Shown here: one piece after another, positions 948-30,993 of the stretch | Layout: every line of letters starts with the position of its first letter | Numbering within the stretch: the first letter of the stretch is position 1 | DNA from: an uncultured Candidatus Saccharibacteria bacterium | GTDB taxonomy: Bacteria > Patescibacteriota > Minisyncoccia > Phycocordibacterales > WO2-35-19 | Length of the DNA: 64,000 bases | NCBI GenBank assembly: GCA_964589445.1 | Contig: CAZPQX010000002.1 | Span: 352-64,351 of the forward strand | Reading direction: 5' to 3' | Notes under the pieces: generated by a model | Database searches by the model: none | Told to the model about the DNA's origin: nothing | The model's input: the letters and a program-made list of their open reading frames with translations, nothing else | Translations under genes and position numbers: made by a program

Positions 948-986
948 TTTTTTCTAAGTGGTGTAGATTGTTTGCGGAGGTTAGCC

Positions 987-1178
987 GTGGGCAACTTTTT
1001 CTTTGTGGCTGGAGTTGTGTTTATCGTTTTGGCTGTGGTAGAGGCAGTACTCCATCCATTTAAAGCCGCAGTCATGTTGATGGAGGCGAAAGCCCGATAC
1101 TGGCAGGCGCGGGCTGCTTTAGAAGAACACCGGCTCTACTGCTTGGAAAAAGATTTACAGAAAGGAGGTGGGGCGTAA
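987..1178 (+). CDS. small GC-rich membrane protein (hypothetical)
   Basis: GTG start preceded by GGAGG SD (977-981). One hydrophobic helix then an amphipathic tail. GC-rich relative to surroundings. Followed by a terminator. Confidence 0.4.
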   Translation: MGNFFFVAGVVFIVLAVVEAVLHPFKAAVMLMEAKARYWQARAALEEHRLYCLEKDLQKGGGA

Positions 1179-1200: not shown

Positions 1201-1285
1201 GTAATTTTTTGCAAAGATTATTTTTAAATTTTTATTTCATTTGTAATTTTTGCGGAAAGGAGTTAGATTTTTGGGGGAGATAAGC

Positions 1286-1438
1286 ATGAGAACCGTGCTG
1301 AAACTTGCCCTGATTTGTCTTGCCGCTTTTGCGGCAGCAAAATTTGGCTTTTGGTTTTTCAGAAGCACCGAGGCCTTTGTCTGCCTCGGAGTCATGGGTG
1401 GAGGAGCTACTCTCCTCATAACAACCCCAAACCTTTAG
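1286..1438 (+). CDS. small hydrophobic peptide (50 aa, two predicted TM segments)
   Basis: ATG with GGGGAG SD 6 nt upstream. MRTVLKLALICLAAFAAAKFGFWFF... Followed by a hairpin plus T-run at 1460-1497. Confidence 0.4.
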   Translation: MRTVLKLALICLAAFAAAKFGFWFFRSTEAFVCLGVMGGGATLLITTPNL

Positions 1439-2536: not shown

Positions 2537-2577
2537 AATTGATTGACCCAAAAGACTATAAAGAATATTTTGGATGG

Positions 2578-2972
2578 GGTGAAATAGGGGATAGGATAAT
2601 GCAGCGGGCTTTGGAGTTGAAGGAAAATTCGGGTAAATGAAAAGGCTCGGAGAAATCTGTTGATCCTCCGAGCCGAACTTTAGAAGAGTGGTACTTCCTC
2701 TTACGGATGAGGTTAATAAACCTCTGCTCTCCGTAGCTAACCAAACTCGAGTGTTTGGCCAGCCGACCTCCTCCCTCGTACCCACCATTGGGTCGTTTGG
2801 GTTTAGAGCGAGTCGTCTCCAGTGGTGAACTGCGCGCTAACGCGTATAGGGCGACGAAGAACGAACGAGCCCGTGAACGCGCCGCAGCCACCATGCACTA
2901 CCACTCTTCTGTCTATAAGTATAGCATACATGCATAAAAAGTCAAGTGTGTTGTGACTTTGTTTGCTGAAGT
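2578..2972 (+). ncRNA. candidate structured ncRNA (unclassified; RNase P RNA, tmRNA or SRP RNA not resolved)
   Basis: About 390-nt GC-rich island (about 55% GC) in an AT-rich genome, with no SD-led ORF. TTGACC-N17-TATTTT promoter puts the transcript start near GGGGUGAAAUAGGGG. Multiple perfect hairpins (ggctcggag-N13-ctccgagcc; ccaaac-tcgagt-gtttgg). A 7-bp hairpin plus T-run sits at 2938-2970. Confidence 0.35.
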
Positions 2973-3427: not shown

Positions 3428-3724
3428 ATGAACTTTCTGATACTTTGCGTGTTGTTACTCGCTCCTCTTTGGGGTGAGGATAAGAAGCCGGTGGATGTGC
3501 CGGCAAAGAAGGAGGTCGTGGCGCCTCCCAAAAAAGATCCCCGCAACGTGAGGCAGTATGACTTTGAGACATACTGCAAAATGAATTGGTATTACTTTGA
3601 TCATCCTCAAGGGATGATCAGGTATTACCCTGAAATTTTCAAAGGGGTGGCACCGGACATCGCGGCTGGGTTTGTGCAGCAGAAGATGCTGCACAACCTA
3701 GCTGTCGCAGGGTGCGAGTGGTAG
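3428..3724 (+). CDS. small secreted protein (signal peptide)
   Basis: N-terminal MNFLILCVLLLAPLWG signal. GC-rich. Strong terminator immediately downstream. Confidence 0.5.
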   Translation: MNFLILCVLLLAPLWGEDKKPVDVPAKKEVVAPPKKDPRNVRQYDFETYCKMNWYYFDHPQGMIRYYPEIFKGVAPDIAAGFVQQKMLHNLAVAGCEW

Positions 3725-6894: not shown

Positions 6895-7500
6895 ATGCAA
6901 AGTTTTAAAAAAGTTTTAAAAAAGCTAAATACTCCTGTCAAAGTGCAAAACTTTTTGGATACCCTACCTTTCAATTTTGAAAAGCAGGGAGCTACTTATC
7001 TTTCACCAAAAATGGTGCTTGAGCAAAAAACAGCACACTGCTTTGAAGGCGCTCTCTTTGCGGCTGCCTGCTTCAAGGAGGTGGGGGTAGAGCATTACCT
7101 ACTTGATTTGAAGGTGAAGGATTTGAAGAAAGATAGTGACCACTGTGTTTGTGCTTTTAAAATAAATGGATATTGGGGTGCAATCTCAAAGACCAATCAC
7201 TCTGTGCTCCGATATCGCGACCCGATTTATAAAACTCCTCGCGAGCTGGCTCTCTCATACTTCCATGAATACTTTTTGGATACAGGCCAAAAGACCCTCA
7301 TCTCTTTTTCAAAGCCTTTTGATGTGTGGAAAAAGTTTGGCGAGACTTGGGTGGAGAGTGAGGAAGACCTAGATGAGATAGCCGAAGCACTCGATACCTC
7401 TCCGCACATCAACTTCGTACCAGAAGAAAACAAAAAGATGATAAGAAAGGCGGGGAAGACAGAAATAGCTGGTGCGGCAGTGGTGGAGTGGCAAAAATAA
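6895..7500 (+). CDS. transglutaminase-like (TGc) cysteine-peptidase-fold protein (putative)
   Basis: TAHCFEGALFAAACFKEVG resembles the TGc Cys motif. Downstream His/Asp candidates. Confidence 0.35.
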   Translation: MQSFKKVLKKLNTPVKVQNFLDTLPFNFEKQGATYLSPKMVLEQKTAHCFEGALFAAACFKEVGVEHYLLDLKVKDLKKDSDHCVCAFKINGYWGAISKTNHSVLRYRDPIYKTPRELALSYFHEYFLDTGQKTLISFSKPFDVWKKFGETWVESEEDLDEIAEALDTSPHINFVPEENKKMIRKAGKTEIAGAAVVEWQK

Positions 7501-7517
7501 TCCACAGATTTCACTTG

Positions 7518-7545
7518 TTGACTTTTTTAATTTTGAGTGTAGACT
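7518..7545 (+). promoter_or_regulatory. sigma70-like promoter for the GC-rich cassette
   Basis: TTGACT-N16-TAGACT. Confidence 0.35.
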
Positions 7546-7585
7546 AAAAAACCAGTTGTTCCAAATTTCCTTTCGAGGAGTTTCT

Positions 7586-7888
7586 GTGTCCCACGTTTAT
7601 CGGAAAGAGTCCCAGAAGAAACCATTCTTCCGGGAGGTTGCGTCTGTTGGGCAGGTGCGGAATGCGCTTGTTTACAACGGTCTTCCTGTTGTTGTGGAAG
7701 ATCTGCAGGGCGTTGATGATTGTGCGCTGCGGGCAGAGATCCGGAGGCGTTTCGGGGTCGAGGATTTAGCGATCCCGATCCGGATTGTGGACATGTCTAA
7801 GGTGAAGAATGGTGGATATCTGGCGATCCATCTTGCGAGGTCCAAGGAAGATCCTCGTTCGATGAGGTTTGACATGGAGATCCACTAG
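7586..7888 (+). CDS. GC-rich small hypothetical protein (100 aa)
   Basis: GTG start with GAGGAG SD 5 nt upstream. About 55% GC against about 38% background. Protein-like composition. Strong terminator downstream. Confidence 0.45.
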   Translation: MSHVYRKESQKKPFFREVASVGQVRNALVYNGLPVVVEDLQGVDDCALRAEIRRRFGVEDLAIPIRIVDMSKVKNGGYLAIHLARSKEDPRSMRFDMEIH

Positions 7889-7917
7889 GTCTCGGAATTT
7901 TACCCTTGTTTAAGGGA

Positions 7918-7950
7918 GGCTGCACACTCGCGAGCGTGCGGCCTTTTTTG
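7918..7950 (+). terminator. intrinsic terminator
   Basis: ggctgcacactcgcgagcgtgcggcc near-perfect palindrome plus tttttt. Confidence 0.75.
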
Positions 7951-8052
7951 TTTTCTCATTTTTCATCAATTCTTCATCTTTTGACTTGACAGGTTTTTCG
8001 TGGGGGAGTACGCTGTTGGGAGTAGTAAAAATCCCACCGTGGAAACGGTTTT

Positions 8053-8265
8053 TTGGAAAGTGTGTTCAAGATGGCATTGTATCCGAGCAAGAGTCAGATT
8101 GATAAGAAGAAGCCGGCGTCGTGGGGTCTTGATAACAAGTACCCTGGCTATACGCCAGATGGTCTGGGTGGGGGTATTTTGTTGACACAGCCACCCACTC
8201 CACGGCAGCAGCCGAGGCAGATGGTGGTCGGGAGTGGGAAGGTCGTGAAGATTCCCAAAGAGTGA
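8053..8265 (+). CDS. GC-rich Pro/Gly-rich small ORF (TTG start; doubtful)
   Basis: Second GC-rich unit with TTGACA-like -35 and a terminator at 8326-8362. Weak RBS. Confidence 0.25.
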   Translation: MESVFKMALYPSKSQIDKKKPASWGLDNKYPGYTPDGLGGGILLTQPPTPRQQPRQMVVGSGKVVKIPKE

Positions 8266-8325
8266 GCCGTTTGTTTGCGGCGCTCGCTTCGGGGGGTCTA
8301 AAATTGACCGTTTGGTCGAATAAAT

Positions 8326-8362
8326 CCGGTGGGCGCGTTGTCGTCCGGGCCGGTTTTTTTTG
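8326..8362 (+). terminator. intrinsic terminator
   Basis: GC hairpin (ccggtgggcgcg...ccgggccgg) plus T8. Confidence 0.6.
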
Positions 8363-8406
8363 CCCAAAAAATTTTTGTAAACACGAGAGAGTGATATAAT
8401 TGAATC

Positions 8407-9435
8407 ATGGAATTTGACTCTCTCTTTAAATTTAAAAACTCAAAATACATTTTCATCGTTGGTATCGGTGGCTCGAACCTCGCTTCCAAGGCAGTGTGGA
8501 GCGCACTCTCTTCTCATAATCCATTTTTAAATAAAAAAGTTTTTTTTATCGAGTCTCTCTCTGAATCACAAAGGCAAGAGATCATGTACATAGCCAAGAA
8601 TGAAGTTGGTTTACCTGAAGATATTTGCATCTTTGTCATAAGTAAGTCGGGGGAGACAAGGGAGACACTCATAAGTTTTAGTGGCCTGATTTCTATTTTT
8701 AAAAATATTTTGGGTACTAATATTTTTGAAAGGGTGGTGTGCATTTCGGAAAGAGACTCGAGGCTCTTTGTTGAGTCGCAGAAAGAAGGTGCATTATGCC
8801 TACCTTGGCAGCAGCAAGTGGGCGGCAGGTGGAGTGCTTTCACTACTGCACACACAGCAGTACTCTTTGTGCTTGGGGTGGATATAAACTCGTATTTGGC
8901 GGGGGAGAGGGAAATGATAGAGGTGTGTAGAGAAAAGGGCTACCACAAAGGGCTCGCAGAAAATATTTTTGAAAATTATAAAAATGGGAAGATAGTTTTG
9001 GATTTCTTTTTGTTTGATGCGCGGCTCGAGACTTTGGGCAAGTGGCTGAGGCAGCTCTTTGCAGAAAGTTTGGGCAAGCAAGGGATAACGGGTGAGAGGG
9101 TAGGGCTTTTGCCTACAGTTTCTCTCGGCCCTACTGACCTACACTCGATGCTGCAGCTATATCTTGGCGGACCGAATAATAGGTTTACCATTTTTGTAAA
9201 AAATGAAAGCGAGCAGGGGTTTGACTATGGTGCGTGCCTCGAGACAGAAGCGGCTTATCAAAATGCGAGTCTGCCTTTTACTGACTACAAACTGTCGGGA
9301 GTAAACGAAAAGGAAATTGCTAAGTTTATGAGATTTTTTATGAATGTGGTGCTCGAGCTTGCTACTCTTTTCAAAGTCGACCCATACGGCCAACCGGAGG
9401 TAGAAAAATATAAACAGCAGATAAAAAATAAATAA
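8407..9435 (+). CDS. pgi: glucose-6-phosphate isomerase (short archaeal/CPR-type)
   Basis: IGIGGSNLASKAVW and FVISKSGETRETL PGI signatures. Confidence 0.8.
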   Translation: MEFDSLFKFKNSKYIFIVGIGGSNLASKAVWSALSSHNPFLNKKVFFIESLSESQRQEIMYIAKNEVGLPEDICIFVISKSGETRETLISFSGLISIFKNILGTNIFERVVCISERDSRLFVESQKEGALCLPWQQQVGGRWSAFTTAHTAVLFVLGVDINSYLAGEREMIEVCREKGYHKGLAENIFENYKNGKIVLDFFLFDARLETLGKWLRQLFAESLGKQGITGERVGLLPTVSLGPTDLHSMLQLYLGGPNNRFTIFVKNESEQGFDYGACLETEAAYQNASLPFTDYKLSGVNEKEIAKFMRFFMNVVLELATLFKVDPYGQPEVEKYKQQIKNK

Positions 9436-20154: not shown

Positions 20155-20170
20155 TTGATTTTTATCTAGC

Positions 20171-20207
20171 GAAAAACCCGAGGAGTGTGTACTCGACTCG
20201 GGTCTTT
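20171..20207. terminator. bidirectional intrinsic terminator
   Basis: cccgag-gagtgtgtactcgact-cgggt with A-run upstream and T-run downstream. Confidence 0.6.
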
Positions 20208-20516
20208 GGACTATCGGGGGACGAGCTGGTTTGCGTCAAACTCAGCCAAATTTGCGCTTGCACTACTCATCACTGCGTTTGCGGTGTTGAGTGTGTTTAC
20301 AAGCAAATTTTCGCCCGCCACGAATACTTCTGACATAAGGAACTTGAGGATAATTATCGTTAACCCAAGTCCCAACGCTTTTCTCATATTATTAAAAATT
20401 GCGGGGGCTAGGTGCAAAGCTGACGAAGCTTTGCACGAGAGCTAACGACTCTCCTCCCTCCGGAGACTAGGCGCGCTTTTCGCGACCACTCTCCGGAGGC
20501 TTTCCTTATGTACCTG
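20203..20516 (-). ncRNA. candidate structured ncRNA on the minus strand (unclassified)
   Basis: Minus-strand TTGACA-N17-TATAGT promoter (20522-20550) and terminator at 20177-20202. Transcript has consecutive perfect hairpins (GCCUCCGGAGA...UCUCCGGAGG with GAAAA-looped inner stem; GUGCAAAGCU-UCGUC-AGCUUUGCAC; GAGAG-UCGUUAG-CUCUC). No downstream gene. No credible ORF. Confidence 0.4.
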
Positions 20517-20521
20517 CTTTT

Positions 20522-20550
20522 ACTATATAAGTACTTCATCTTCGTGTCAA
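20522..20550 (-). promoter_or_regulatory. near-consensus sigma70 promoter (minus strand)
   Basis: TTGACA (20545-20550 complement), 17-nt spacer, TATAGT (20522-20527 complement). Confidence 0.55.
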
Positions 20551-21061: not shown

Positions 21062-21448
21062 CTAGCGGCGAAAGCTGTTCCAAAGAGACGGTGCTCCGAA
21101 GGGTGGCTCCTTCTTCCACTTGATCGTCTTCCGGTTTGTAATCCAGTGAGGACGATCTGGGCGACCAAAGCCACAACCATCGAAATCTGGTGCGAGACCG
21201 TGAGTGTTCCTCGGTTGCTCCACCTTTCCTTCACGGAAGAACTTTCGTGCGATCCGAGACGCTTTACCACGAATCTCTCGTGGCCAGCGATAATCTCGGT
21301 ATTCCTTGAGAAGCTTGTCGATCTGCTCCGGTGTGCTGGCCGATGTGCCGGCGATGATGAGTTTTACATCCTTCGGGTCCACCTTCCCCTCAGCCATTTC
21401 TTCACAGCATTTGCCGAGGCTCAAACCGATCAGTCTAGTTTTACGCAT
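21062..21448 (-). CDS. GC-rich hypothetical protein (128 aa)
   Basis: AAGGAG SD 7 nt upstream of ATG. About 52% GC. Isolated on the minus strand between + strand genes. Confidence 0.5.
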   Translation of the reverse strand: MRKTRLIGLSLGKCCEEMAEGKVDPKDVKLIIAGTSASTPEQIDKLLKEYRDYRWPREIRGKASRIARKFFREGKVEQPRNTHGLAPDFDGCGFGRPDRPHWITNRKTIKWKKEPPFGAPSLWNSFRR

Positions 21449-30600: not shown

Positions 30601-30993
30601 TTAGGCCGGGATCTGGGCTGGGGCGAATAATTGCTCGAATATCTCATCTGACGGGCATGGTGACATGCCGTTCAGGGAGAGGAATGGGGTGCTCCCTGCA
30701 AATACAGGTCGCAGCCAGTAAAACACGATGCTCCTGGGGAGCACACTTGCTCCATCTTCTAAAGTCGTCACCAGCCTTACTTGCCACATTTCAGCCGGGG
30801 GTTTTGGTGACACCCGACTAGTTCCGGTAGCCTCTATTCGGGCCACTATATTCTTTTTTGAGATGTGGTTGCCATAGTAACTTTGCACAGACATTAGCAG
30901 ATTTGTACCTGCTCCGTGCAACGCATCATTTGCGATATACCAGGTTCCCAAGGGTTCCCCAGGGAAAGTGATCCCTGATTCGATTCTGAACAT
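30601..30993 (-). CDS. GC-rich hypothetical protein (130 aa)
   Basis: AGGAGG SD 6 nt upstream of ATG. About 52% GC. Lone minus-strand gene. Confidence 0.5.
   Translation of the reverse strand: MFRIESGITFPGEPLGTWYIANDALHGAGTNLLMSVQSYYGNHISKKNIVARIEATGTSRVSPKPPAEMWQVRLVTTLEDGASVLPRSIVFYWLRPVFAGSTPFLSLNGMSPCPSDEIFEQLFAPAQIPA

Follow-up and report, generated by a model that had tools for sequence, protein, structure and literature searches.

Introduction

Phage morons, prophage modules such as HK97 gene 15, are defined by their own promoter, their own terminator and a deviant guanine-plus-cytosine (GC) content (PMC3594210). Among prokaryotic orphan genes (ORFans), a survey found GC content and GC content at third codon positions (GC3) close to those of conserved genes, with de novo candidates lower in GC (PMC11293555). 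Here we characterise positions 7518-8362 of a stretch of 64,000 nucleotides from contig CAZPQX010000002.1, hereafter called the window. This interval, the slot, lies between a transglutaminase-like (TGc-like) gene and pgi, a short phosphoglucose isomerase gene, and holds two GC-rich units, unit 1 and unit 2. A sequence-only reading had taken them for compositionally foreign small genes, either horizontally acquired or encoding toxin/antitoxin-like or secreted peptides. On balance, we favour the explanation that they are two separate small-protein genes of a narrow lineage, situated in a hypervariable slot whose base composition is stationary.

Morons, without their phage context, appear to be the closest analogy. 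Like a moron, each unit is a single small gene with its own promoter and factor-independent terminator (here on computational evidence), differs from its neighbours in GC content, and is present, absent or different at one position in related genomes. Unlike morons, the units lie outside any phage or prophage, amid genes for BipA, the TGc-like protein, pgi and a ROK kinase; they have no PHROG hits and no IMG/VR relatives, their promoter and 5' untranslated region (5'UTR) scaffold is conserved and apparently native, and their composition is stationary. The units resemble ORFans in being short and lacking detectable homologues, and in their low codon adaptation index (CAI), a disordered product and purifying selection, but their GC3 is about 0.23 above that of native genes and they use Shine-Dalgarno (SD) sequences where native genes have none. 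The sharp fall in identity at the edges of the open reading frame (ORF) body, the conserved flanks, and contigs that are identical on one side and carry unrelated alleles on the other recall allelic-replacement loci; here, however, the variable part is one tiny ORF in a conserved promoter/terminator scaffold and not a multi-gene surface-structure locus. Integron cassettes likewise form a row of small, mostly orphan ORFs that are exchangeable between strains, but each unit has a predicted promoter of its own, the units have no attC-like repeat in common and none was found elsewhere in the window, and no integrase-like ORF adjoins the slot. In contrast to type II toxin-antitoxin systems, the units do not form a co-transcribed operon (they are separated by a terminator and a second promoter) and are not inherited together.

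A hypervariable slot between conserved genes

The locus was compared with Logan assembly contigs (L002-L004) and a JGI contig (L005) that bear relatives of the units, with a 9.4 kb Logan contig (L006), and with three more distant loci (L007-L009) obtained by a metagenome scan with the TGc-like protein. The latter come from Hainich groundwater 0.1-µm fractions, and their TGc proteins are about 70% identical to that of the window. All relatives have a common gene order (BipA, a 250-aa minus-strand gene, the TGc-like gene, the slot, pgi and a ROK kinase), with extra genes between pgi and the ROK kinase in some. From the contig sources and gene content we infer membership of the Candidate Phyla Radiation, and the narrow lineage probably consists of ultra-small groundwater bacteria.

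Within this order, the two positions of the slot are occupied in different combinations. L003 has a window-type unit 1 (82% amino acid identity) together with an unrelated unit 2, while L006 has a window-type unit 2 together with a unit 1 ORF of 28% identity. L003/L004 and L005 are 100% identical in DNA over the TGc-like gene and unit 1 and diverge from the unit 1 terminator onward. L005 bears a window-type unit 2 and L003/L004 bear an unrelated 67-aa ORF with a CxC...CxxC pattern, which is framed by a homologous promoter and a homologous 3'UTR. Downstream, pgi is again 92-97% identical between these contigs. L003 and L006 have the SD and the first three codons of the unit 2 slot in common. 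The unit 2 ORF of L003/L004 did not arise by inversion, as there is no similarity on the reverse strand, and an apparent common C-terminal tail of the window and L003 unit 2 proteins was not significant.

In L006, the region corresponding to window 7580-7970 (the unit 1 ORF and terminator) cannot be aligned, whereas the flanks on either side are 84% and 82% identical and the flanking proteins 82-87% identical to those of the window. The 85-aa ORF in this position is no more than a distant homologue of unit 1, which it matches with a BLASTP E-value of 0.054 and a Smith-Waterman z of 4.5 (p = 0.005 by 400 shuffles of the sequence, with no correction for the 27 pairs compared). It could be a strongly diverged allele that arrived by recombination, or the outcome of a phase of rapid divergence. 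Further out, the slot of L007/L008 holds a single unrelated, SD-led putative ORF of 81 aa followed by a terminator, and that of L009 holds two unrelated putative small ORFs, each with a promoter-like site and a terminator.

All relatives have kept the promoter and 5'UTR scaffold. The -35 region of unit 1 and the sequence upstream of it, TAATCCACAG, which follows directly after the TGc stop codon, recur in five relatives, the most distant of which have TGc proteins about 70% identical to that of the window. The CAGTT element of the unit 1 leader is conserved across all five lineages, and the SD-like AGGAG is retained in L003, L006 and L007. At the unit 2 promoter, L003, L005 and L006 share an almost unchanged block, GACTTGACA..GTGGGGGAGTA. 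The unit 1 terminator is represented in L003 and L006 by a hairpin and T-run with a different stem sequence, and the unit 2 3'UTR is kept in L003 even beside an unrelated ORF. These comparisons indicate that the slot is hypervariable, with an old and conserved expression scaffold (promoter, 5'UTR and terminator) in which the ORF body has been replaced or has diverged. No repeated scaffold or attC-like element was detected elsewhere in the window, nor any repeat common to both units.

Relatives also carry extra genes amid the syntenic housekeeping genes, at L006 1484-2218, L007 4899-5753 and L009 7222-8172. These inserts comprise a 244-aa membrane-anchored protein before bipA, a 284-aa HTH-like protein, and ORFs of 148 aa and 142 aa between pgi and the ROK kinase. 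They are not all GC-rich, which suggests that gene-by-gene insertion is common in the lineage beyond the slot studied here.

Base composition and codon usage

The sequence-only reading had set the units at about 55% GC against a background of about 38%. They are GC-rich, with a contrast smaller than these figures: GC content is 0.502 over 7518-8362 and 0.53 and 0.54 in the unit 1 and unit 2 ORFs, compared with 0.42 in the flanking genes and 0.403 in the whole window. Codon usage is strongly atypical in both units, beyond what chance would give. GC3 is 0.61 in unit 1 and 0.63 in unit 2, compared with 0.45 in the flanking genes and 0.379 ± 0.059 (maximum 0.49) in 39 long ORFs, and CAI is 0.52 and 0.60, respectively, compared with 0.738 ± 0.032 (minimum 0.664) in native genes, i.e., 4-7 standard deviations low. 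The bias is towards G-ending, rare codons: CGG makes up 54% of arginine codons in the units and 2% in native genes, GCG 78% and 12% of alanine codons, and CTG 33% and 6% of leucine codons, and AAG, GAG and CAG are favoured as well. GC3 is 0.26-0.37 in the ribosomal-protein genes of the window, and 0.26-0.44 when RpoA and the chaperone genes are included, so the codon set of the units is not one optimised for expression.

Orthologues in the same synteny have the same composition, with GC3 of 0.58-0.72 for unit 1 in L002-L005 and for unit 2 in L005 and L006, and in all relatives the GC3 of every slot occupant is above that of its flanking genes. Synonymous sites are heavily turned over between these orthologues (synonymous divergence, dS, 0.5-2.4), and about half of the third positions differ between the window unit 2 and that of L006. 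Third-position exchanges between strong and weak bases are balanced, at 14/13 for unit 1 and 14/11 for unit 2 against L006. As exchanges are symmetric and high GC3 is retained, the composition is stationary and not ameliorating. High GC3 and rare G-ending codons therefore appear to be a stationary trait of every slot occupant, and not the decaying trace of a recent import. The label of compositionally foreign small genes thus stands as to their distinctness in codon usage and initiation signal; recent horizontal acquisition does not, given that syntenic orthologues hold the same composition, an observation that the sequence-only reading had itself named as refuting. An acquisition further in the past is conceivable.

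Purifying selection on both reading frames

Substitutions in both units fall mainly at third codon positions. Unit 1 differs from its L003 orthologue at 15, 8 and 31 first, second and third positions, with a ratio of nonsynonymous to synonymous divergence (dN/dS) of 0.12, which is in the same range as the neighbouring genes in the same comparison (TGc 0.06, pgi 0.12 and a 259-aa gene 0.12). For unit 2 the corresponding differences from L006 are 7, 6 and 31, with dN/dS of 0.04, and dN/dS is 0.07 against L005. These patterns argue that both reading frames are protein-coding and under purifying selection.

A 133-aa antisense ORF (7966..8367, minus strand), which is longer than the unit 2 gene, was rejected as spurious, because its first codon position coincides with the third position of the sense frame, where the changes fall, and because stop codons interrupt it in L006. 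It shows how GC-rich islands in an AT-rich genome can yield long false ORFs.

Anatomy of the two units

Each unit appears to be monocistronic, with a sigma-70-type promoter-like site, an SD-bearing 5'UTR of roughly 30-55 nt and an intrinsic terminator of its own (Table 1). The unit 1 promoter-like site is one of only four matches in a consensus scan of 7000-9000. The architecture described for unit 1 by the sequence-only reading (TTGACT/TAGACT, a GAGGAG SD, a GTG start, 100 aa and a palindromic terminator) is all present, with the GTG codon placed at 7586 rather than 7587. For unit 2, that reading had proposed a TTG start at 8053 and a product of 70 aa. The start is instead assigned to the ATG at 8071, giving 64 aa, because the L006 orthologue begins there with MALYPSK and conservation sets in at this point. 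The SD of unit 2 is weak in this genome and that of unit 1 is strong.

The terminator proposed for unit 2 was recovered as a 3' hairpin followed by T8. Both hairpins of the unit 2 3'UTR have compensatory changes in relatives (5 of 19 pairs in the RNAalifold consensus), as would be expected of working terminators. Of the two small hairpins in the unit 2 leader, the second resembles a terminator; the leader hairpin region 8036-8054 is present in L005, deleted in L006 and different in L003, and this variability argues against a conserved regulator. It lies immediately ahead of the start codon, where it may attenuate expression, in this strain alone.

The motif TAATCC(A/C)CA(G/T) occupies window 7498-7510, directly after the TGc stop codon; it is intergenic yet kept in 5/5 lineages. 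It may be an operator or a UP-like element for the unit 1 promoter.

Table 1. Coordinates (window numbering) of the slot, its flanking genes and other small GC-rich ORFs. UTR, untranslated region; CDS, coding sequence; SD, Shine-Dalgarno sequence.
Feature	Position	Strand	Description
TGc-like gene	6895-7500		201-aa ORF; weak transglutaminase-like match, PF04473, E = 7e-4
Unit 1 promoter-like site	7518..7545	+	TTGACT-16-TAGACT; consensus scan
Unit 1 -35 box	7518-7523	+	TTGACT
Unit 1 -10 box	7540-7545	+	TAGACT
Unit 1 5'UTR	7546..7585	+	40 nt; conserved CAGTT element; SD GAGGAG 7575-7580, 5 nt before GTG
Unit 1 CDS	7586..7888	+	GTG start; 100 aa; orphan small protein
Unit 1 intrinsic terminator	7917..7949	+	GC-rich hairpin 7917-7944 then U6; small hairpin 7903-7916 ahead
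Unit 2 promoter-like site	7986..8014	+	TTGACA-17-TACGCT; read from sequence, below consensus-scan threshold
Unit 2 -35 box	7986-7991	+	TTGACA
Unit 2 -10 box	8009-8014	+	TACGCT
Unit 2 5'UTR	8018..8054	+	two small hairpins; second (8036-8049 + U6, ACCGTGGAAACGGT) terminator-like
Unit 2 CDS	8071..8265	+	ATG start; 64 aa; basic, Pro/Gly/Gln-rich; predicted disordered
Unit 2 3'UTR	8306..8361	+	hairpin A 8306-8317; terminator hairpin B 8326-8353 then T8 (8354-8361)
pgi	8407-9435		short phosphoglucose isomerase gene; bounds slot downstream
Small GC-rich ORF	972-1178		68 aa; hydrophobic helix; own terminator
Small GC-rich ORF	1250-1438		62 or 50 aa; hydrophobic helix; own terminator
Small ORF	3428-3724		signal peptide, begins MNFLILCVLLLAPLWG; leaderless-type start; L006 orthologue conserved, GC3 0.67
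Small ORF	21062-21448	-	SD AAGGAG
Small ORF	30601-30993	-	SD AGGAGG

Two orphan protein families

The unit 1 protein is acidic and that of unit 2 is basic. AlphaFold2 (AF2) modelled unit 1 as an alpha/beta protein with a predicted local distance difference test (pLDDT) score of 68, in which the 17 N-terminal residues are disordered; the product is probably a 100-aa folded alpha/beta protein without a signal peptide. The AF2 model of unit 2 has almost no secondary structure (pLDDT 58, predicted template modelling score 0.14). Despite this predicted disorder, the first 35 residues of the unit 2 peptide are almost invariant; a more variable stretch follows, and the C-terminal part is conserved too. 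Overall, the peptide is 95-97% identical to its L005 counterpart; for L006 the figure is 81-89%, varying with the method of alignment.

In public collections, the unit 1 protein is identical to P0001 and has one related cluster, P0002, at 82% identity. A unit 1 profile, run exhaustively with HMMER against 1.84 billion representatives, returned nothing beyond P0002 at E <= 0.001. Word-indexed searches of 5.8 billion protein clusters with unit 1, unit 2 and the 67-aa ORF of L003 returned near-identical relatives only; P0004 and P0005 were the sole homologues found for unit 2, and the 67-aa ORF is itself an orphan. Scans of IMG/VR contigs yielded no relatives of the units. Neither the two proteins nor the other small GC-rich ORFs or the alternative ORFs of the slot had hits in Pfam, NCBIfam, PHROGs or PADLOC (no PHROG match at E < 0.09), and a sequence search of the PDB gave chance-level matches only. 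Foldseek comparison of the unit 1 model with the PDB and BFVD found no structural neighbour (best E 0.5-0.6, template modelling score < 0.35), and an exact-sequence look-up of the window's own proteins found no record.

One candidate relative of unit 1, a metalloprotease-like ORF of Solirubrobacteraceae (L001; 34% identity over 70 aa), was rejected as a chance match, because it had been picked via an exact eight-residue seed (EDLQGVDD), is only about 26% identical outside this seed and is absent from the exhaustive HMMER results.

Neither protein, then, has a family, fold or viral match. Both appear to be new orphan families of a known general kind, confined to a narrow lineage.

A wider class of small genes

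Native genes of the window mostly lack an SD, as the remark in the sequence-only reading on weak native ribosome-binding sites had anticipated. An SD-like 4-mer precedes only three of 37 long native genes, compared with 14% of internal control ATGs, and a TATAAT-like box ends 4-10 nt before the ATG in 14 of the 37, compared with 2.9% of control ATGs. Examples of this leaderless type lie at 8392-8409 (pgi, with TGaTATAAT 6 nt before the ATG), 22773, 28062, 48327, 1529 and 34642. In a published survey, the anti-SD motif was detected in only 48% of Parcubacteria (PMC9297842); the 16S rRNA gene of the present genome lies outside the window. As native genes are mostly SD-less and many look leaderless, the SD-led, GC-rich small genes stand out as a distinct class.

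Four further loci had been grouped with the slot on account of their GC content and unusually strong SDs. Their small ORFs share the atypical composition (GC3 0.49-0.63, CAI 0.54-0.66) and have strong terminators. The strong SD holds for the ORFs at 21062 and 30601 and fails at 3428, where the start is of the leaderless type. The ORF at 1250-1438 has a leader with GGAAAGGAG / GGGGGAG, which is SD-like, and this ORF and its neighbour at 972-1178 probably encode tiny membrane proteins.

Two other GC-rich stretches of the window resemble non-coding RNA (ncRNA). The interval 20170-20515 (minus strand) follows a near-consensus promoter (20550..20522, TTGACA-17-TATAGT), ends in a hairpin and U-run, and contains no convincing ORF. 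Its minimum free energy is -147.3 kcal/mol, compared with -96.6 ± 5.1 kcal/mol for shuffled sequences (z = -9.97), and a threshold of E <= 1 in Rfam still gave no match; the interval may encode a structured RNA of about 340 nt. The second interval, 2612-2925 (minus strand), has a promoter at about 2960-2930 (TTGACT/TATACT), a terminator GGCTCGGAG...CTCCGAGCC and a fold z of -5.4, and has no Rfam match. A 112-aa ORF (2556..2894, minus strand) crosses this terminator and is doubtful, and the stretch is a possible ncRNA. Over the whole window, Rfam gave no match at the gathering threshold, and a search for tRNA and tmRNA was negative.

Discussion

The properties of the two units could also be those of foreign genes, drawn from a pool of about 55% GC that uses SDs (a phage, a plasmid or a host bacterium) and inserted as moron-like promoter-ORF-terminator modules. 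The atypical codon usage with its low CAI, the reliance on SDs where the genome otherwise hardly uses them, a promoter and terminator for each unit and the variable slot occupancy would all fit such an origin, and the published definition of morons names just these traits (PMC3594210). Foreign genes would not, however, be expected to have syntenic orthologues of the same composition at dS of 0.5-2.4 with symmetric exchanges between GC and AT, and the promoter and 5'UTR scaffold looks native and old. Together with the lack of homologues in the cluster, representative, IMG/VR, PHROGs and BFVD searches, and of any integrase, flanking repeat or phage gene nearby, this makes a foreign origin unlikely. 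The proposal of a toxin-antitoxin-like pair, or of secreted peptides, finds some encouragement in the adjacency of two small ORFs, one encoding a basic disordered protein and the other an acidic folded one. We nevertheless consider it very improbable: the genes have separate promoters with a strong terminator between them, they vary independently (L003 and L006, with a single ORF in L007), and neither Pfam, NCBIfam, PADLOC nor the exhaustive HMMER search links them to a toxin or antitoxin family. As for secretion, neither protein has a signal peptide or transmembrane segment; the N-termini, MSHVYRKESQKKPFFRE in unit 1 and MALYPSKSQIDKKKPAS in unit 2, are polar and not hydrophobic, as read by eye from the sequences with no dedicated predictor run.

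The third-position excess of substitutions in the sense frames and the low dN/dS speak against the idea that the units are GC-rich structured ncRNAs, whose ORFs are by-products of the rarity of stop codons in GC-rich sequence. GC-rich islands in AT-rich genomes are often structured RNAs, the window has two ncRNA-like stretches elsewhere, and spurious ORFs do occur here, as the antisense ORF illustrates. The whole-transcript folds also beat shuffled controls (z = -2.4 for unit 1 and -3.9 for unit 2), but the coding sequences by themselves give weak values (-2.3 and -0.95), so that the signal comes mostly from the terminators, and a search of 7300-8600 against Rfam at E <= 10 gave chance-level matches only (E >= 2.8). 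We regard this alternative as extremely unlikely. It is also very unlikely that unit 2 is a precursor peptide whose conserved 35-aa leader ends in GLGGG and which is cut by the adjacent papain-like TGc cysteine peptidase, with unit 1 as an accessory. The near-invariant N-terminus followed by a more variable stretch, the predicted disorder of the peptide, and a transglutaminase-like peptidase gene that is always directly upstream of the slot are what such a system would present. Yet no modification enzyme, cyclase or transporter lies nearby, the flanking genes being those for BipA, pgi and the ROK kinase; the TGc gene is unchanged in relatives with unrelated slot ORFs or an empty second position; unit 1 has no RRE/PqqD or other family match; and the C-terminal part of unit 2 is conserved as well.

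We therefore return to two lineage-restricted small-protein genes in a hypervariable slot of stationary composition. Under this explanation, the ORF body would be exchanged between lineages by homologous recombination, or would diverge beyond recognition, within a conserved scaffold. The composition would most likely be kept by GC-biased repair during frequent recombination at the slot, or by selection acting on the short mRNAs with their SDs; alternatively, it may stem from a gene pool richer in GC that has yet to be sampled. GC-biased gene conversion has been proposed for bacteria (PMC4450053), and a GC excess maintained at a site of repeated allelic replacement fits that process. The genes may provide accessory, strain-variable functions through partner binding, possibly directed toward hosts, phages or competitors.

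Several points weigh against this explanation. Transcription and translation of both units are read from sequence, the promoters are consensus matches alone, and the -10 box of unit 2 is weak. Confidence in the AF2 model of unit 1 is moderate (pLDDT 68, with the other four models at 35-55). The comparison covers four to five related lineages, all represented by short metagenomic contigs; GC-biased conversion is deduced from a handful of recombinant contigs and does not account for the SD sequences.

A broader and quite doubtful proposal is that the SD-led, GC-rich small orphans form a separately governed class. Old promoter/5'UTR/terminator 'sockets' between housekeeping genes would receive ORF bodies that are exchanged or reinvented, GC-biased conversion at recombination hot spots, or selection, would actively uphold the composition, and SD-dependent translation would permit control independent of the remaining proteome, such as on contact with a host.

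If the explanation favoured here holds, the locus would be an alignable example of how very small genomes generate strain-specific small proteins, with the scaffold fixed and the coding body swapped. It would also show that deviant GC content and codon usage may persist as a maintained state over long periods, which calls for caution in composition-based detection of horizontal transfer. A comparison of the SD-led orphans with the leaderless or SD-free native genes could bring to light two translation regimes in a single cell.

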